Part shown: in pieces, positions 1-60,499 of the stretch | Layout: the number at the start of each line of letters is the position of its first letter | Numbering within the stretch: position 1 is the first letter of the stretch | Assembly (NCBI GenBank): GCA_000004985.1 | Contig: GG738911.1 | Direction: 5' to 3' (one strand) | Length of the DNA: 64,000 bases | From: Naegleria gruberi | Taxonomy: Eukaryota | Notes under the pieces: generated by a model | Seen by the model: only the letters and a program-made list of their open reading frames with translations | What the model was told of the DNA's origin: nothing | Database searches by the model: none | Program-made: the position numbers and the translations under genes

Positions 1-333
1 CCAAACCCAAACCCAAACCCAAACCCAAACCCAAACCCAAACCCAAACCCAAACCCAAACCCAAACCCAAACCCAAACCCAAACCCAAACCCAAACCCAA
101 ACCCAAACCCAAACCCAAACCCAAACCCAAACCCAAACCCAAACCCAAACCCAAACCCAAACCCAAACCCAAACCCAAACCCAAACCCAAACCCAACCCA
201 AACCCAAACCCAAACCCAAACCCAAACCCAAACCCAAACCCAAACCCAAACCCAAACCCAAACCCAAACCCAAACCCAAACCCAAACCCAAACCCAAACC
301 CAAACCCAAACCCAAACCCAAACCCAAACCCAG
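1..333. repeat. Terminal telomeric tract of about 55 CCCAAA units (G-strand TTTGGG), with occasional CCCAA variants; C-rich strand on top, so this is a left chromosome end.
   Basis: Perfect hexamer periodicity is visible from position 1. The tract abuts unique AT-rich subtelomeric sequence at 334. Confidence 0.9.
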
Positions 334-25061: not shown

Positions 25062-25150
25062 TACAAAATCAAAAACTACTACCAAGAACTTTCTTTTTTA
25101 ATTATTTAAAGGATAGTTTCAAATTTTTAAATTGTTCGGATTCTAGAGGA

Positions 25151-26093
25151 ATGCGTTGGTCTTCTGATATGTTGTGTTTTGCTCAAGATTTATTATCTTC
25201 TATGGGATATAATTTGTATGATGCAATTGGAAGAGGATCAATTGGTAAAGAGAAGTTCCAAACCAATTCCAGTGCTTGTAATTTAATTCTGCCCTGTTCC
25301 ACAACTCTTGACAATCATTTCCATATACCAAATTTCGGATATGGTGATACTTCAATTGACGAAAAGGAATTTGAATTATTCCAATCATCTATGGGTATTT
25401 CTAATACAACCCTTGGTGTTTTACAAGTTGATGCAATGGATTTATTTCCGTGTTTGAGTATTAATACACGTACTGGATTTTTAGTTGGTGCAATACAAGG
25501 ATTAATTCCAATTTCTCAATCAAACACTATCACAGAGGAAATAATTAATAATAACTTTCTAGCTGAAAAGGTAATTCAAACATTATTTTTGGATGTTGAG
25601 GGGAAAATTAGAATACCTGGAAATTTTCAATTTTGTAAATCTGAAACTAGTGAATTGATTGAAAAAGTAGTTGAAAAATTCAAGGAAGTCTATACTGACA
25701 ACATTTGTTGCACTGTTTCTGATGCAGGATCTGCTAATTGGACATATTTTACAAATTTAAAAAGTGAGAAAACTTTTCATCACTTCTGTTACTCTCACTT
25801 GGCTAAAAATATTAGAAATGCTATTGATTCAAAACCCAAACTGTTTCCAATTGAACACAGAAAGATAACAGAACCTAGTATTTTGACTAAGGAAACCTCA
25901 AACACTTATTCTACACACAAAGGTGTATGTCATTTATTTAGAATTCAATTTAAAAAGACAAGTAATATCACCATCCACTTATCAATTGTGATAGAAGATA
26001 AGAAAATTGATATATTCTGGAATAATCGTTCAAATACAACAGTACACAACTACAGTACATTATCTTCCTTTTATTCAGTTAATGATAAAACGT
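25151..26093 (+). CDS. hAT-like DDE transposase fragment. The 3' end is truncated by a gap and the 5' end is uncertain (first ATG after the gap).
   Basis: Open frame of about 314 codons. It contains ...CCTVSDAGSANW...(16 aa)...FCYSHLAKNIRNAID, which resembles the hAT blocks TDNASNM and CxAHxLNL. It lies in a subtelomeric contig. Confidence 0.35.
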
Positions 26094-26143: not shown

Positions 26144-26769
26144 ATCATATCAATAATAATCATCATGACCATCCAAATATCACTCTTTCCAATAAAATTC
26201 AACCAAGTAATAGTTGAAGAATATTCATTCGAAAAATCCAGCACCGAATTAAATTCCTTCTCACCCTGTGCAGTCTCCATATATAATGCTCTATGAACAA
26301 GTACTCCAATCATGATCTTTTCCATCAAACTCGACAAGACGAAAAGTCCAAACAAGAGATTGACCCAGAGTGCTCTCTTATCAAATCTCCAAAATAATTT
26401 AACAAAGGCCACAACTATAAACAAGGCTACTCCTTGATACATTATATGATGATACCTTCCTTCTTCTCCCATTTGATGAAGTAAACTCCAAACCTTCTCC
26501 GATGACATCCATCCCCATCCAAATCTCGTTCCCAACGTTAAATGTATCCACGATGATTCATATATTTGTACATAATGATAGAAAGCATATGGAAGGGAGA
26601 GAATTAAACCAAGAAACCAATAAAACAAGGAATTTGATCTTAAATTGGTTAAAATTGATTTCTTATTGTTGTATTTTACATATCCACTCGATGATGATGA
26701 TGATGTAGCCGAGAATAATTTATTGGATGATGCAAAAGTTGAAGTGGAAGGCAAGGTTGTCGGTAACAT
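26144..26769 (-). CDS. Small multi-pass membrane protein, paralogue copy A; its C-terminus is lost in the gap. Possibly EXPERA/TMEM97-like.
   Basis: ATG at 26769 (MLPTTLPSTSTF...). At least 3 hydrophobic helices. About 97% identical to the complete 225-aa copy at 59183-59860. Start of FYWFLGLILSLPYAFYHYVQI weakly resembles the sigma-2/TMEM97 N-terminus. Confidence 0.55.
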
Positions 26770-26983
26770 TTGTAATTCGAATATTTTTTAAATCAAAAAA
26801 AATAATAATATAAAATATTATTTTTTATTCCGTGATGAAAATCAAATTAGGAAAGGGGAATAATTTCCATCATTTCAAAGAAAAAAAAAAGCGCCAACTA
26901 AGCAAAATAATTATTGGCTTTGAAAAAGTCCGGCTAAAAGTGATACAAGAATACTCATAGATTAGTTGAATCCAATCATCATC

Positions 26984-27435
26984 ATGATCAGTTTATTTAT
27001 TGCTGCCTTGTTCGGATCAAATAGCAGAAATTTAGATAAAACTTCCAATCAACAATTATTTGGCTATGAACAACAACAACAACAACCAGTAAATCATCAT
27101 CATCCTCCTCATCAACAACAACAGCCTCCACAACAACCACAACAACAATATTATGTAAATAATCCGCAGCCTCTACCACCAAATTATCAACCTTCAATTC
27201 CGCCACCCAATCATAGAAATTCAATCATTAGTAATAATAATAATATTAATAATAATATTAATTATCATCTACAACAACAACCAGTAAATCAACAGCCTCC
27301 TCCTTCTTCTACCTCTAATTCCTTCAAAGTTAATAATAATAATTATCCTAATGTAATAACAACAACATATCCGCCACAACAACAACAAGCAAATACTACT
27401 GGTTATCCACAATCACAAATTGTAGATCACAATCA
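26984..27435 (+). CDS. Secreted Q/N/P-rich protein, paralogue copy A; truncated at a contig end.
   Basis: ATG at 26984 gives MISLFIAALFGS, which looks like a signal peptide (the track start at 26966 is TTG). Poly-Q, poly-N and PPxY-like low complexity. Near-identical to 60063-60499 of copy B. The frame then runs into a gap and telomere repeat; the QTQT/PKPK translation there is spurious. Confidence 0.55.
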
Positions 27436-27485: not shown

Positions 27486-27786
27486 CCCAAACCCAAACCC
27501 AAACCCAAACCCAAACCCAAACCCAAACCCAAACCCAAACCCAAACCCAAACCCAAACCCAAACCCAAACCCAAACCCAAACCCAAACCCAACCCAAACC
27601 CAAACCCAAACCCAAACCAAAAACCCAAACCCAAACCCAAACCCAAACCCAACCCAAACCCAAACCCAAACCCAAACCCAAACCCAAACCCAAACCCAAA
27701 CCCAAACCCAAACCCAAACCCAAACCCAAACCCAAACCCAAACCCAAACCCAAACCCAAACCCAAACCCAAACCCAAACCCAACCC
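27486..27786. repeat. Second (CCCAAA)n telomeric tract, internal to the scaffold, in the same orientation as the terminal one; minor CCCAA and CCAAAAA variants.
   Basis: About 50 hexamer units begin immediately after a gap and are followed by unique AT-rich sequence (27787-28485). Confidence 0.9.
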
Positions 27787-28485
27787 ACGACTAAGGTCAG
27801 ACCCAACATTTTGACTTTTATTCATCTTAATTCATTATCTCAATAAATACTCATTATAAATCAATATATTATATATCAATATACTCCAAATTGAATATAT
27901 AATCATATTATAACATAATATTATATCATTATAATGACTTATATAAGTTAATTTCAAATAATAGATTAGACAATTAGAATATCAATGAAACCATTTCAAA
28001 ACCATTTCAAATCAATATATCACATTATAAATCATGTTAGCAACAATGTATATCAATTTCAGATACTTTGGTATCATTTCAGGATATTTGCTATTCAACT
28101 TGTCAACTGACCAATACTAACATTGAAGATAGAAATCTTTACCACTTCAATTCACTTCCAATACATATATACATGATAATTAAATACATTAATATCATTT
28201 TGACATTCATCCATATTATACATGGTACATGGCTGTTCCACTTGATACCTACAGGGATGTGACAATGACATCCACTATACAGATCATTATGAAATTGTTA
28301 CAGTACCTTACTTATGGTGAATAAACACTACTGTATCAGTTTCATGACAATTTGAAATCATCCAACATGTCAGGAGTGTAATCATGAGAACTATGAATGT
28401 CAGTATAATGAAATCATATTAATTTTGAAATCTTTCAATTATATCATCGTAGATAGATCAATTAACCATGGTATATCAATAATTG

Positions 28486-31839: not shown

Positions 31840-32149
31840 GCAAATCAACCTGATTCAATCTACAAAGGTTGGTAGTTGCACCACTTCGTGGCGAAACTAC
31901 CCATCCACGATGAATCAACATGTGATTCACTTCCATTCAACTCAATTTGACCGTTATATTCAATAAATCAATGAAATGTTCCTTTATTAGCAATACCTAT
32001 TCAATCTAATGAGTAGATTCACGTCCCAAACATTTGACTTCTCAAAGTCCATAATTCAAAAGTTAGTACTGACCTGACCTTTAAATATCTATCAATGCAA
32101 GAAATGAAACCATCAAATTTACATCATTTATAGATGATAAGAAATATAA

Positions 32150-33319
32150 TCAATGATATAAATCTTCACTAAGTAATATATTAAATAACCCAAATAAATC
32201 AACTCTGAATCCTAACCAAACCCAAACCCCCCCACCCAAACCCAACCCAAACCCAACCCCAAACCCTGAAACATAATCATCACATTGCATATCAGATAAG
32301 GTTGAATATTGCATCAAATTCTTAGTTCTGGTTGAGGCAATTTCAAAGGTTTTAACTTGGGCAACCTTTTCAGAGGATGTTTCATTGTGAATGAGTTTAA
32401 GCAAATCATCCATTCCCAAATTATTGACCTTCTCTTCTCCCAATTCTTTAATTTTTTTAGCAACAAGATTGTCCATATCTTCATCTTCCACACAACCATT
32501 AATCACCAAATTTGGAATCTTATTAGCATCTGTTAAGAGTAAACATTTACCATCAGTTTTAGTTGTCAAATAATCCATAAACAAGGTCAATTGTTGATCA
32601 TCCTTAGCTCTTTCACACAAAATTCCATAAAAGACAACATTCTTCTCCTGGAGAGCAGATCCCAATTTGATCCAATCAATGACATTTCCTTGTTGATCCT
32701 TACATCCTTCTGGATAGCTATCAGATGATGTTTTCATTCCATGTGGAGGAGCATCAGCAACCCAAACAACAATCTTCTTTCCCTTCTTATTAAATGGCAT
32801 TTCATTAATGACATAGAGAGCTGATGCCAAAGCTTCTGGATGATCACCTCCACCTTGAGCTGACATTGTATTGATATAACCCTTTGCCTTATTTAAATCC
32901 TTTGTAAATGGGAATTCCTTAACTGCATAATCATCAGTGTGATCTCTATAACTGACAGCTGAAAATCTCAAATCAGATTGAAACTTTTCATGAAGTGTTG
33001 AGATGATAGTAGTGACAGTTCGTTTGGCAACTTCAATTTCACCAGACATTGATCCAGTACAATCCATTACAATAACCAAATCAACAATATTTTCACTGTG
33101 GTCAACCAATTCTTGATCATAACCTTCTTCTTCCAAATGTTTAGCACGAATCCAAGCACCAGGTCTTTGAGAATTGCTGTTGTGTTTGTGTTCATCATCA
33201 TGACGATCCACAATTGACAAATCATCCATTCTTCTTCCTAATTTTTCTTCGACTGGCAACATTTCGTCAAAACAATCATCATCACAATTGTTTAAATCTG
33301 AAGGAATGTAGAGATCCAT
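32150..33319 (-). CDS. von Willebrand factor A (vWA) domain protein. The C-terminal ~40 codons are read from the telomere-like tract, so the true 3' end is uncertain.
   Basis: ATG at 33319. VIVMDCTGSMSGEI is a MIDAS-type D-x-[ST]-G-S-M motif, and VVWVADAPPHG also fits a vWA fold. The tail GFGVGFGLGLGGG is a translation of the G-rich telomeric strand. Confidence 0.6.
   Translation of the reverse strand: MDLYIPSDLNNCDDDCFDEMLPVEEKLGRRMDDLSIVDRHDDEHKHNSNSQRPGAWIRAKHLEEEGYDQELVDHSENIVDLVIVMDCTGSMSGEIEVAKRTVTTIISTLHEKFQSDLRFSAVSYRDHTDDYAVKEFPFTKDLNKAKGYINTMSAQGGGDHPEALASALYVINEMPFNKKGKKIVVWVADAPPHGMKTSSDSYPEGCKDQQGNVIDWIKLGSALQEKNVVFYGILCERAKDDQQLTLFMDYLTTKTDGKCLLLTDANKIPNLVINGCVEDEDMDNLVAKKIKELGEEKVNNLGMDDLLKLIHNETSSEKVAQVKTFEIASTRTKNLMQYSTLSDMQCDDYVSGFGVGFGLGLGGGVWVWLGFRVDLFGLFNILLSEDLYH
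32211..32266. repeat. Degenerate interstitial telomere-like tract.
   Basis: Sequence cctaaccaaacccaaacccccccacccaaacccaacccaaacccaaccccaaaccc. It lies 370 bp right of the gap edge and inside the 3' end of the vWA ORF. Confidence 0.7.
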
Positions 33320-33595
33320 TATTTTTGATAGTGTAGGTTATTAAAGTTTCTGTTTTTTTTGATTTTGTTTGGATATGAACTTTTTGTTGGTTTGATTTAA
33401 ACCTTGTGTGAAGAATAGCAAGTTCATTGTTCAAAAGTTTAGTTGGCAATGACGAAGAAGTTCCAATGCACAGGGAGATACAGTTTGCAATTCTAGAATA
33501 AACTCAATATTCAATGAATTAGTACACTTTCGAATAGAATAGAATAGAATAAACGAAACCTGAGAATAAAATCGAATAAAAGTAAACTGATTTAT

Positions 33596-35590
33596 TTACA
33601 AATTATTTTCACTGTAATAACTTGCTTCCAATTGTAATGAATTTGGATTTCCTCTCCTTACTAATCCAGTTGTCTCTTGTGAATATTGCAAATTATTCTT
33701 CTTCTTCCAATAAATTCCACAAGCAAGGAATAAAATTAAAGTTCCAATTAAAGATAATGTCAATAACACAATAGTTACAATAAATCCAGTAATGCTTTGA
33801 CCAAGTAAGTGTTGAGATGAAGAAGATTTCACATTCAATTGAGTGACAGATGGCAGAAGTGTAAATTGGGAGAAACCTTCACTAGGACCCTCAATTGCAA
33901 TGAAATAAATTTGAGAATTTGATGAAGGATTATCCAATGATTGAATGTGATTTGAAAGCATTCTTACTGAATAGTGTTGATTAGTTGGTTTGAAATTTTG
34001 GCCAACCAGCACAATGACATCTTTTCCAGATAAGGTAGAACATGAAAGAGACAATCTTGAATGAGATGGAATGGTTATTTGATAGAGAGCTGATTCTCCT
34101 GATTGGATTTTCTTGGAAATTGTCGAATCTTGAATGAGTGGAATTCCATTTTCTCTTTCGAATGAAGTTATTGGATTTGGTTGAGGAGATGGAATTGGAT
34201 GTGGACCTTTCGAATAACTAGGAATTGGTCTTGGAATAGATGGCGATGGTTTTGGTGGAACAATAGTTGGTTCAGGTTTTGGTGGAATTACAGAAGGTTC
34301 TGGTCTAGGTCTGGAAGGAGATGGAATTGGTTGAGGTGGAACGGATGGAGAAGGAGTTGGAGTTGGAGGAATGAAAATCTTTTTGGCAACAACATATAGT
34401 TGATACGAGTTGACCATCACATTTTCTTGACAATTCAAATGGAAAGAACCATCCTTAAAAGTGGCCTTTTCTGGAGAAATGTGCAAATTGTCCTTTCCAA
34501 ATGCAAATGCGCATGCAAGTGTTGAATTATCTAATTCCTTATCCAAATTTGAAATTGTGAATTCTCTCCAAGATTTCACACCAAAACTCAATAAATTCTG
34601 AGAAATATCGAATGAGTAAATTGAATAATAATCTGATTTGGAAACTGGATCGATAATTAATTGACCAACTGTCTCATTTCTTACTAGCTTGAATGATGGT
34701 TCAACTTCTTGACTGATTTCAGTATTATCAGTGGTCAATTGGAAAGAAAATTCCAATTTATCTTTTTCTAAACTAAACTCTAACATTCTAGAATAATAAA
34801 TGGAATATTCTTGTTCAAAGTTTGCTGAACTACCCTCAAAGGCGCAAATAGCAAATGTATATGAAGTATCCGAACCGGTTCTCGTGTCAATTTCCAATTT
34901 CCAAGGTCCTTCAAATGGTTGATCATCAAATAAAAGTTCAAAGATTTTCGATTTTGTGTGAACTTTGAATATTCTGAATGATTTTGGATCCACATTGAAA
35001 ATTGAACTAGATTTGATAAATTCAACAGTAATGGCATTGAAATCGAAAACATCACTTGTTGATACTGTAATATGATAAAGATCAAATACTCCTAAAATGG
35101 TTAATGGTTGTTGAATAGTATGTGGAAATATAAAATCTTGATATGAACTGACATCTCTATTAGCTAGAGTGAATTGACCCTTAAGGTCACTATTAGGATT
35201 GACTGTCACTTGCAAAATATCCTTATCTGACCAACCTGTCACAAATTTTGACAAGAAAAATGGATCAATTGTAACTGGTTCTCCAAAATTGATAACATGT
35301 TCTTCTCTCTTGAATTTCTTGGAAATGAGCAAAACAATAAATTCAGTAGCTCTGATATCTTCTGAACAATCTAAAAAGTATTTGGAAACCTTGTCAACTG
35401 GATCTTGTGAAAAGGTTGGTTTGTCATCACTGTATTCAATTGTAGAATAGGCACCATTTGAATCCTTAATTAAATAAGCACATGTCATTTCACTGAATTT
35501 GACATCAATGGCATTTCCATTCTTATCAGAAAATGACATTGAAGGAAGGAATTTGAAAATTCTGCCCTCATCATAATTCATAATTTCCAA
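33596..35590 (-). CDS. The same glycoprotein, C-terminal part: ectodomain, Pro-rich stalk, single TM and a short cytoplasmic tail.
   Basis: Pro-rich stalk PPTPTPSPSVPPQPIPSPSRPRPEPSVIPPKPEP..., then TM ITGFIVTIVLLTLSLIGTLILFLACGIYW and a basic tail. There is no credible independent promoter. It overlaps the upstream ORF by 13 nt in a different frame. Confidence 0.5.
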   Translation of the reverse strand: MEIMNYDEGRIFKFLPSMSFSDKNGNAIDVKFSEMTCAYLIKDSNGAYSTIEYSDDKPTFSQDPVDKVSKYFLDCSEDIRATEFIVLLISKKFKREEHVINFGEPVTIDPFFLSKFVTGWSDKDILQVTVNPNSDLKGQFTLANRDVSSYQDFIFPHTIQQPLTILGVFDLYHITVSTSDVFDFNAITVEFIKSSSIFNVDPKSFRIFKVHTKSKIFELLFDDQPFEGPWKLEIDTRTGSDTSYTFAICAFEGSSANFEQEYSIYYSRMLEFSLEKDKLEFSFQLTTDNTEISQEVEPSFKLVRNETVGQLIIDPVSKSDYYSIYSFDISQNLLSFGVKSWREFTISNLDKELDNSTLACAFAFGKDNLHISPEKATFKDGSFHLNCQENVMVNSYQLYVVAKKIFIPPTPTPSPSVPPQPIPSPSRPRPEPSVIPPKPEPTIVPPKPSPSIPRPIPSYSKGPHPIPSPQPNPITSFERENGIPLIQDSTISKKIQSGESALYQITIPSHSRLSLSCSTLSGKDVIVLVGQNFKPTNQHYSVRMLSNHIQSLDNPSSNSQIYFIAIEGPSEGFSQFTLLPSVTQLNVKSSSSQHLLGQSITGFIVTIVLLTLSLIGTLILFLACGIYWKKKNNLQYSQETTGLVRRGNPNSLQLEASYYSENNL

Positions 35591-59182: not shown

Positions 59183-59860
59183 TTAAAATTGATAATTATT
59201 ACGATTAATAGATTGCATCAATTTAGGTTTCACAATCATATCAATAATAATCATCATGACCATCCAAATATCACTCTTTCCAATAAAATTCAACCAAGTA
59301 ATAGTTGAAGAATATTCATTCGAAAAATCCAGCACCGAATTAAATTCCTTCTCACCCTGTGCAGTCTCCATATATAATGCTCTATGAACAAGTACTCCAA
59401 TCATGATCTTTTCCATCAAACTCGACAAGACGAAAAGTCCAAACAAGAGATTGACCCAGAGTGCTCTCTTATCAAATCTCCAAAATAATTTAACAAAGGC
59501 CACAACTATAAACAAGGCTACTCCTTGATACATCATATGATGATACCTTCCTTCTTCTCCCATTTGATGAAGTAAACTCCAAACCTTCTCCGATGACATC
59601 CATCCCCATCCAAATCTCGTTCCCAACGTTAAATGTATCCACGATGATTCATATATTTGTACATAATGATAGAAAGCATATGGAAGGGAGAGAATTAAAC
59701 CAAGAAACCAATAAAACAAGGAATTGGATCTTAAATTGGTTAAAATTGATTTCTTATTGTTGGATTTTACATATCCACTTGATGATGATGATGATGACAT
59801 AGTCGAGAATAATTTATTGGATGATGCAAAAGTTGAAGTGGAAGGCAAGGTTGTCGGCAA
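59183..59860 (-). CDS. Small multi-pass membrane protein, paralogue copy B (complete). The canonical ATG is mutated to ACG; the first in-frame ATG is 20 codons downstream at 59800.
   Basis: Track start at 59860 is TTG. Copy A has ATG TTA CCG at the homologous site; copy B has ACG TTG CCG. Upstream, in-frame, is a TAA. An internal ...STMSSSS supplies an ATG not present in copy A. Confidence 0.55.
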   Translation of the reverse strand: MPTTLPSTSTFASSNKLFSTMSSSSSSSGYVKSNNKKSILTNLRSNSLFYWFLGLILSLPYAFYHYVQIYESSWIHLTLGTRFGWGWMSSEKVWSLLHQMGEEGRYHHMMYQGVALFIVVAFVKLFWRFDKRALWVNLLFGLFVLSSLMEKIMIGVLVHRALYMETAQGEKEFNSVLDFSNEYSSTITWLNFIGKSDIWMVMMIIIDMIVKPKLMQSINRNNYQF

Positions 59861-60499
59861 CGTTTGTAATTCGAATATTTTTTAAAAATAATAATAAAAT
59901 ATTATTTTTCATTCCGTGATGAAAATCAAATTAGGAAAGGGGAATAATTTCCATCATTTCAAAGAAAAAAAAAAGCGCCAACTAAGCAAATTATTTGCTT
60001 TGAAAAAGTCGGCTAAAAGAATTGATAATATACTCATAGTAGATTTGTTGAATCCAATCATCATGATCAGTTTATTTATTGCTGCCTTGTTCGGATCAAA
60101 TAGCAGAAATTTAGATAAAACTTCCAATCAACAATTATTTGGCTATGAACAACAACAACCAGTAAATCATCATCATCCTCCTCATCAACAACAACAGCCT
60201 CCACAACAACCACAACAACAATATTATGTAAATAATCCGCAGCCTCTACCACCAAATTATCAACCTTCAATTCCGCCACCCAATCATAGAAATTCAATCA
60301 TTAGTAATAATAATATTAATAATAATAATAATTATCATCTACAACAACAACCAGTAAATCAACAACCTCCTTCTTCTACCTCTAATTCTTTCAAAGTTAA
60401 TAATAATAATTATCCTAATGTAATAACATATCCGCCACAACAGCAACAAGCAAATACTACCAATGGTTATCCACAATCACAAATTGTAGATCACAATCA
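59235..60499. repeat. Segmental duplication copy B, embedded in continuous sequence.
   Basis: Same as copy A. The real extent of the duplication is at least this long and possibly longer; copy A is cut by gaps. Confidence 0.85.
59861..60062. promoter_or_regulatory. Short bidirectional intergenic/promoter region of the duplicated divergent gene pair.
   Basis: About 200 bp AT-rich spacer between divergent CDSs. It is conserved with indels in copy A (26770-26983). Confidence 0.35.

Follow-up and report, generated by a model that had tools for sequence, protein, structure and literature searches.

A vWA gene of Naegleria gruberi NEG-M breaks off within its C-terminal subdomain and continues, in frame, as a degenerate tract of GGGTTT repeats. 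The repeat unit is that of the candidate telomere of the species, the tract begins exactly where similarity to an intact paralogue ends, its G-rich strand continues the retained strand of the gene, and the conserved C terminus of the protein family is gone. We consider this probably to be a genuine internal tract, made by telomerase at the breakpoint that truncated the gene. Both the action of telomerase and the manner in which the tract became internal are what we infer from these features. The best reading is that the gene broke in codon 351/352 and that telomere repeats were added to the broken end, a step common to the two routes set out below.

The window, meaning the whole stretch of DNA analysed here, is a 64-kb (64,000-nucleotide) part of a gapped draft scaffold (GC ~34%). 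Positions 1-810, 25062-26093, 26144-27435, 27486-28485 and 31840-64000 are sequenced, and the rest consists of gaps. The features used in the argument are these.

1..332, plus strand: terminal-type telomere array, (CCCAAA)~55, which opens the window on an 810-bp contig
27486..27787, plus strand: terminal-type telomere array, (CCCAAA)~50, which opens a 1000-bp contig
31840..32210, no strand assigned: distal flank, from the gap to the tract, AT-rich and G-poor on the plus strand
32150..32210, minus strand: read-through of the gene's frame into unrelated flank, 19 codons that give the last Phe of ...WLGF and RVDLFGLFNILLSEDLYH, and then the first in-frame stop, TGA at 32152-32150
32211..32266, G-rich strand on the minus strand: degenerate telomere-repeat tract of 56 bp, ~8-9 GGGTTT units
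32267..33319, minus strand: retained part of the vWA gene, codons 1-351, comprising the vWA domain and about half of the C-terminal subdomain
33320..33543, minus strand: upstream region (promoter / 5' leader) of the duplicated block, 91.7% identity excluding gaps, with several indels

The vWA gene and its repeat-encoded tail

The open reading frame at 32150..33319 (minus strand) encodes 389 residues and ends ...SDMQCDDYVS-GFGVGFGLGLGGGVWVWLGF-RVDLFGLFNILLSEDLYH*. Pfam places a vWA domain at residues 80-247 (VWA_4, VWA_2 and VWA, E values of 2e-12 to 9e-9). Codon 351 (Ser) ends at 32267, and the tail codons 352-389 occupy 32266-32153, directly ahead of the stop. These 38 tail residues are made up of the 56-bp tract (residues 352-371) and 18 codons of flanking DNA; the codon of the last Phe in ...WLGF straddles the tract edge (32211-32209), just before RVDLFGLFNILLSEDLYH. 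The initial annotation had described a well-formed vWA frame that gives way to an in-frame (GGGTTT)n tract at 32211-32266, and both the description and the coordinates are confirmed.

The tail peptide alternates between GF, GL and VW, which GGGTTT encodes in its three frames, and every change from one to another coincides with a frame-shifting indel of the tract. Running as it does through all three repeat frames, the tail is a plain read-out of the repeat and no selected protein segment. There is no in-frame stop in the open reading frame upstream of the tract, that is, before 32266, so gene callers continue for 38 codons and produce the Gly/Phe/Leu/Val/Trp tail of XP_002670847.1. This tail is an annotation error and not an evolved protein segment. 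None of the aligned homologues has a G/F-rich tail, and a search with the last 72 residues found the tail in no other protein cluster. Residue for residue, the window frame is identical to XP_002670847.1 / EFC38103.1 / D2VYF5 (NEG-M, 261,328-bp scaffold), and the odd tail is therefore already in public protein databases. The 38-residue tail of XP_002670847.1 / D2VYF5, an artefact, resembles a transmembrane segment and could mislead analyses of topology or family.

The intact paralogue and the breakpoint

Protein searches with the window frame return only Naegleria vWFA proteins (from N. gruberi, N. fowleri and N. lovaniensis, together with a few metagenome proteins); no solved relatives of this family were found by sequence. 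The closest homologue is an N. gruberi paralogue, XP_002680825.1 (P0001, 395 residues), which is 94% identical and is located on another scaffold, of 938 kb. An intact gene near-identical to this paralogue is present on a 3.8-kb metagenome contig, L001, as one uninterrupted 395-codon frame. By blastn, L001 has one real match in the window, pairing L001 1723-2975 with window 33504-32266 at 93.9% identity. The two are identical up to ...GATGATTATGTTTCAG, beyond which the window reads GGTTTGGGGTTGGG... and L001 reads CTCAGAATGTCATG...; after the common ...GTTTCAG, L001 continues CTCAGAATGTC... and the window GGTTTGGGG... The match between paralogue and window runs to ...GATTATGTTTCA(G) and stops exactly at the first repeat. 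One G is common to both, so the junction is 32266/32267 with one base of ambiguity, and junction microhomology amounts to one nucleotide only.

On the 5' side, homology reaches ~33543, which is ~224 bp upstream of the ATG and ~50 bp short of the stop codon (33596) of a neighbouring 664-codon open reading frame (33596-35590). The window copy and the L001 copy have different neighbours; the window therefore holds a small duplicate of ~1.28 kb, composed of the upstream region and codons 1-351, with the tract as its 3' edge.

At the protein level, the window copy follows P0001 only as far as ...SDMQCDDYVS, where P0001 goes on with AQNVMTRNDDCEAESDSFDDYGGVYYKAPTMEKVAKAYSRNLRK. The initial annotation had proposed aligning orthologous vWA proteins to locate the proper C terminus, and an alignment of homologues places it ~44 conserved residues further on: each of the 12 Naegleria homologues (12/12) continues for about this length to a conserved end, ...KAxxRN. 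Near-invariant positions of the lost segment are F369, G373, P380, K387, A388 and R391 (P0001 numbering). The conserved end of the family reads ...YGG.YYKAP..KVAKAYSRNLRK (also written ...KAxSRNLRK), and this segment (...KA..RN..K) is missing from the window protein, with the repeat-encoded tail in its place. A tblastn search with the last 60 residues of 16 homologues found the lost 44 residues in none of the sequenced parts of the window; these C termini match nothing but the 16 residues that precede the tract. The AlphaFold model of P0001, whose mean pLDDT is 78.6, shows residues 352-395 as ordered, forming strands at 354-358 and 375-378 and a helix at 382-394 (pLDDT 81-90). Because this segment is both ordered and conserved, the window copy has lost structured, conserved sequence; judged by the predicted fold, it is without part of its structured C-terminal subdomain.

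Comparison of the window copy with L001 over codons 56-351 gives 8 synonymous and 3 non-synonymous changes (dS 0.046, dN 0.004) and a dN/dS of ~0.09; neutral evolution would yield that many synonymous changes with a probability of ~3e-4. At most one residue (N337Q) is assignable to the window lineage. From this comparison of sequences, codons 56-351 look constrained. The low dN/dS could mean that the truncation is recent relative to the duplication, that the copy is still used, or that there has been gene conversion from the paralogue. Codons 16-53 are far more diverged, with 17 non-synonymous versus 2 synonymous codon differences, and part of this divergence looks like a compensated frameshift.

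If the window protein is made, its last ~32 residues, GFGVGFGLGLGGGVWVWLGFRVDLFGLFNILL, would be strongly hydrophobic, with a mean Kyte-Doolittle value of +1.4 versus -1.1 in the normal end. Expression of the truncated copy, with GFGVGFGLGLGGGVWVWLGFRVDLFGLFNILL acting as a new hydrophobic membrane anchor or as an aggregation-prone tail on the vWA domain, would be compatible with the low dN/dS of codons 56-351 and with the single replacement, at most, on the window lineage. We regard it as quite improbable; if true, it would mean that telomere repeats have been co-opted as coding sequence.

The telomere-like tract and its setting

Read on the minus strand, the tract is GGGTTT GGGGTT GGGTTT GGGTT GGGTTT GGGT GGGGGGGTTT GGGTTT GGTTAGG, with GGGGTT, GGGTT, a G7 run and GGTTAGG as variants of the unit. 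TRF assigns it a period of 6, with 8.3 copies and 75% matches. Over its 56 nt, 8 edits separate it from a perfect (GGGTTT)n array; 56-mers taken at random from its contig need 23 or more, and both terminal-type arrays need 0.2-0.9. A scan of the window for (CCCAAA)3 with three or fewer mismatches, for which the chance expectation is 0.06, returns only 1-340, 27486-27784 and 32229-32269, all on the plus strand. The unique sequence of the window (32 kb) contains no further dimers of the CCCAAA/TTTGGG unit.

For N. gruberi, a survey of eukaryotic telomeres lists TTTGGG as the candidate repeat (PMC3622300). The unit of the tract matches this candidate and the arrays at 1-332 and 27486-27787, and the variant GGGTT is present in the terminal arrays too. 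Both of these arrays are near-perfect, at least 300 bp long and followed by AT-rich unique DNA. Beyond that 2013 survey naming TTTGGG (PMC3622300), a literature search returned nothing on Naegleria telomeres, interstitial tracts or healing.

The G-rich strand of the tract is the 3' continuation of the retained gene DNA (on the minus strand, the gene runs 5' to 3' and GGGTTT follows). This is the polarity expected of telomerase extending the broken 3' end of a centromere-side fragment. The tract and both terminal-type arrays share one orientation. Neither an inverted partner array nor (TTTGGG)n on the plus strand was found, G-strand dimers being absent from the plus strand of the window. With one array, one orientation and no inverted partner, a head-to-head telomere fusion is excluded.

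Within the assembled contig, non-telomeric DNA flanks the tract on both sides, for 370 bp distally (to the draft contig edge) and for at least 31.7 kb proximally. In the assembly the tract is thus not a chromosome end; beyond it come 370 bp of unrelated DNA, followed by a gap, which makes it at most a former healing site. The decay of the repeats argues against a freshly made functional telomere. In the distal flank, a 41-codon plus-strand frame enters from the gap and stops at 31964-31966, its stop overlapping an AATAAA; no homologue of this frame was found in the protein database. The flank (31840-32210) resembles neither the paralogue locus, including the 685 bp downstream of the paralogue, nor the rest of the window, and the portion read through by the gene's frame (32150..32210) has no homology to the 3' end of the paralogue. 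Compared with the DNA beside both terminal arrays, the flank shows no significant similarity, even at word size 7. A 'ATGAAACCAT' motif, noticed by eye in the flank and in both array neighbourhoods, is not supported as homology by that comparison. The 5-bp sequence TTCAG is present both proximal and distal to the tract.

Between the tract and the contig edge, where a 3.35-kb gap adjoins, there are only 370-430 bp, and the internal position of the tract rests on one draft assembly. Searching metagenome contigs with a junction 20-mer gave three unrelated bacterial chance matches and no independent copy of the junction; an exact-protein search of the contig index with the window frame and P0001 gave no match. 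In the scaffold, 27 kb of other sequence precede the terminal-type array 27486-27787, and contig 26144-27435 duplicates 59235-60499 of that scaffold at 94.9% identity; on both counts, local scaffold structure is unreliable. By the scaffold gap estimate, the inner end of the array (27787) is ~4.4 kb distal to the tract. A weak transposase-like fragment is present elsewhere in the scaffold. In the reference assembly, the region stands out as a chromosome end that is badly scaffolded.

Origin of the tract and comparison with known systems

In the explanation that we prefer, a block of ~1.28 kb (32266 to ~33543), carrying the complete vWA gene and its upstream region, would have been duplicated from or to the XP_002680825.1 locus. 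A double-strand break would then have struck the window copy in codon 351/352, and telomerase would have added GGGTTT repeats to the 3' end ...GATTATGTTTCA(G). The last 44 codons would have been removed in the process; in the intact protein they encode two strands and the terminal helix of the C-terminal subdomain. Two routes could lead from this step to an internal tract. By route (a), the healed end may have eroded and then gained distal DNA by recombination or break-induced replication, as a new subtelomere. By route (b), telomerase may have supplied filler during one repair, in which the repeat-tipped end was rejoined to a distal piece and the 3' end of the gene was lost. The array would since have decayed to its present 8 edits in 56 nt. 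The same-orientation arrays a few kb away and the 95% internal duplicate distal to the tract favour route (a). Replacement of the gene's 3' end by telomere healing, later made interstitial, had been among the suggestions of the initial annotation, and it is supported by the further 44 codons of the paralogue and by the fitting polarity. The evidence for route (a) depends on scaffold links across gaps, and nothing else in the window resembles the part of the distal flank that is sequenced.

Four other accounts of the tract bear on how much of this explanation should stand. If telomerase inserted the repeats while an internal break was being repaired, and the 3' end of the gene was deleted, the flank would be the original downstream DNA and the chromosome would never have ended here. 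We think this unlikely, although a serious contender, and its probability forms part of that given to the best explanation, from which it departs in the last step only. The short (56 bp), single-orientation tract, its sharp proximal junction and the TTCAG on either side would all suit such an event, as would a distal flank that looks like ordinary gene-end and intergenic DNA and unlike a repeated subtelomeric element. However, the flank does not resemble the 685 bp downstream of the paralogue, so an accompanying deletion must be assumed, and scaffold links put same-orientation arrays a few kb away, which is the setting of a chromosome end. It is rather unlikely, in turn, that the neo-telomere is real but that the chromosome ends at 32266, the 370 bp at 31840-32210 having been joined on by a chimeric clone or a mis-assembled read. 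Break and telomere addition might then be confined to one homologue or to some cells of the culture, and only the internal position would be false. The closeness of the tract to the contig end and the adjoining gap are consistent with such a join, and so are a flank that matches nothing else and a scaffold that misplaces a terminal-type array and holds a 95% duplicate contig. Against it, terminal arrays here are at least 300 bp long and near-perfect, whereas the tract has the 56 bp and 8 edits expected of an old internal remnant; the 370 bp beyond it read cleanly, with a plausible gene end and AATAAA; and the join would have to coincide with the very tip of an array that is decayed and unusually short. 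The initial annotation had suggested a small misplaced end fragment. As put, this is unsupported since the tract sits inside a contig (31840-64000) of at least 32 kb, and what is left of the idea is a possible chimeric join in its last 430 bp.

The two remaining accounts dispense with the truncation or with telomerase. Were the tract intronic, the mRNA would be spliced after ...DDYV to the MEVNH frame, MEVNHMLIHRGWVVSPRSGATTNLCRLNQVDL, or to an exon hidden in the gap, and a normal C terminus would be restored. The initial annotation had pointed to a donor-like GTTTCA, and there is indeed a GT dinucleotide at the right place; the open frame that it named as a possible downstream exon is also present, sharing the frame of the tail and running from 31936 to 31840 into the gap. 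Yet the paralogue has no intron here, its GTT TCA being Val-Ser coding sequence within a single uninterrupted exon, and DNA homology to the paralogue stops at the tract, with no exon edge there. No sequence for the 44 conserved residues exists in 31840-32210 or in other sequenced parts of the window. As for the frame, it is short (32 codons), directly follows a stop and is unremarkable by chance at 0.056 stops per codon; unrelated to the family and unlike the lost C terminus, it does not qualify as a downstream exon. An intron is accordingly very improbable. There is just as little to commend an origin without telomerase, as a C3A3 microsatellite that arose by chance or as a mobile-element end, with truncation by ordinary rearrangement. 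Nothing speaks for it directly, beyond the degenerate state of the tract and the weak transposase-like fragment noted above. The unit, its variants (with GGGTT also in the terminal arrays) and the polarity are those of a telomere, the tract starts exactly at the homology breakpoint, and the unit forms no further dimer in the 32 kb of unique sequence, the chance expectation being 0.06.

If confirmed, a telomerase-made tract at the breakpoint would be direct sequence evidence for the addition of TTTGGG to broken Naegleria ends, and would support TTTGGG as a functional telomere repeat. It would also show that the gene families of a heterolobosean are shaped by breakage and repair at chromosome ends, in an organism about whose telomere biology almost nothing has been described.

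De novo telomere addition inside genes is known from human terminal deletions at 16p13.3 that cause alpha-thalassaemia and from Plasmodium falciparum, in truncations of KAHRP and Pf11-1. As in such chromosome healing, the window has coding sequence joined abruptly to repeats, a G-strand that continues the retained strand, little or no junction microhomology and loss of the distal part of the gene. The difference lies in the array, which is terminal and long in healed chromosomes; in the window, 56 decayed bp are followed by other DNA. Neotelomeres are also described in cancer genomes (PMC11293586). Our literature search found no published healing events in Naegleria, a heterolobosean.

A parallel to route (a) is the right end of chromosome V in the Caenorhabditis elegans strain CB4856, where the old telomere, shortened tenfold, is succeeded by a new subtelomere, itself a copy of an internal region at 91% identity (PMC6581047). 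By this route, both cases would have a short remnant of a former telomere, in the orientation of the present end, with DNA added distally. The window contig 26144-27435, distal to the tract and 95% identical to 59235-60499, recalls the internal duplicate of CB4856. Unlike in CB4856, continuity between the tract and an array is given in the window only by scaffolding across gaps, the sequenced flank matches nothing, and no TALT-like template element was seen in the window. Subtelomeric interstitial telomere tracts at the boundaries of duplicons are known in yeast and human.

For route (b), a counterpart is the class of short interstitial telomeric sequences that, reportedly (Nergadze et al.), telomerase inserted during break repair in primate and rodent genomes. 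These, like the tract, are short, single-orientation tracts at a repair junction that later decay. Their flanks were contiguous ancestrally, whereas the window flank is not the continuation of the gene, so that a deletion or a foreign join must be added. Human 2q13, the site of a head-to-head telomere fusion, likewise has internal telomere repeats, but such fusion sites consist of two inverted arrays and the window has one array in one orientation. What the window probably holds is a known class of event, a healed break with a subtelomeric or short interstitial telomere tract, in a heterolobosean in which it had not been described before and which belongs to a little-studied lineage.

N-terminal divergence and family membership

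Differences between the vWA ORF (32150-33319, minus strand) and its intact paralogue (XP_002680825.1) are concentrated in the low-complexity N-terminal part. Codons 16-53 (33160-33275) carry 17 non-synonymous and 2 synonymous codon differences, and the gene is almost identical to the paralogue elsewhere. Around codons 42-47 the two DNAs have AAACACAACA in common, offset by one base, an arrangement that suggests a compensated frameshift.

A third N. gruberi entry in the family, P0018 (XP_002668746.1, 198 aa), is located outside the window on an 18,311-bp scaffold. Residues 1-196 of the intact paralogue recur in it unchanged, after which it stops. The probable origin of P0018 is a haplotig, or a gene model truncated where a contig ends, so that the reference proteome probably overstates the number of vWA family members.

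Flanks of the vWA copy

Sequence features on either side of the vWA copy and its telomere-like tract:

32205-32210 and 32267-32271, minus strand: TTCAG pentamers directly flanking the tract (32211-32266) on both sides
33532-33590: (GAATA)4 and a 27-bp unit repeated twice
31841-31966, plus strand: frame of 41 codons (QINLIQSTKVGSCTTSWRNYPSTMNQHVIHFHSTQFDRYIQ, then a stop) entering from the assembly gap

The TTCAG pair has the look of a short direct repeat, arising perhaps by chance or perhaps from microhomology used in rejoining. The repeats at 33532-33590 separate the block common to the paralogue locus, at its 5′ edge, from the stop codon of the next gene. On the gap side, the stop of the 41-codon frame overlaps an AATAAA motif, and a protein database search found no homologue of the frame. 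It may form the 3′ terminus of a gene inside the gap, oriented convergently to the vWA copy.

Small contigs and scaffold order

The small contig 26144-27435 is a same-orientation copy of internal segment 59235-60499 (94.9% identity over 1,304 aligned bp, with indels), which holds two divergently transcribed genes, one of them Q/N/P-rich. This pair has diverged about as far as the two vWA copies have (93.9% identity). Either a paralogous duplication or a divergent haplotype put into the gap could account for the contig. Contig 25062-26093 (1,032 bp) is a single plus-strand open frame throughout (343 codons, ...LQVDAMDLFPCLSINTRTGFLVG...HFCYSHLAKNIRN...). Its sole Pfam match, the TNP-like RNase H N-terminal domain, has an E-value of 0.067 and, at 13.9 bits, falls below the family cut-off of 24.6 bits; the contig may represent part of a P-element/THAP9-like transposase.

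Contig 27486-28485, exactly 1,000 bp long, opens with a terminal-type array of about 50 CCCAAA units; in the scaffold it comes after a gap of 50 Ns and, before that, 27 kb of other sequence. The window itself begins, in contig 1-810, with another such array in the same orientation. As no DNA is possible beyond a chromosome end, at least one contig within 1-27435 is mis-scaffolded, or part of another chromosome end or haplotype.

At these native ends, scattered degenerate repeat remnants adjoin the regular terminal arrays (333-385 and 27788-27810; for example, CCCAGAAC...AAACCCAACGTTCAAACCCTAGCCCAAAA). The tract at 32211-32266 differs from them, its gene-side edge being sharp and its distal edge more decayed.
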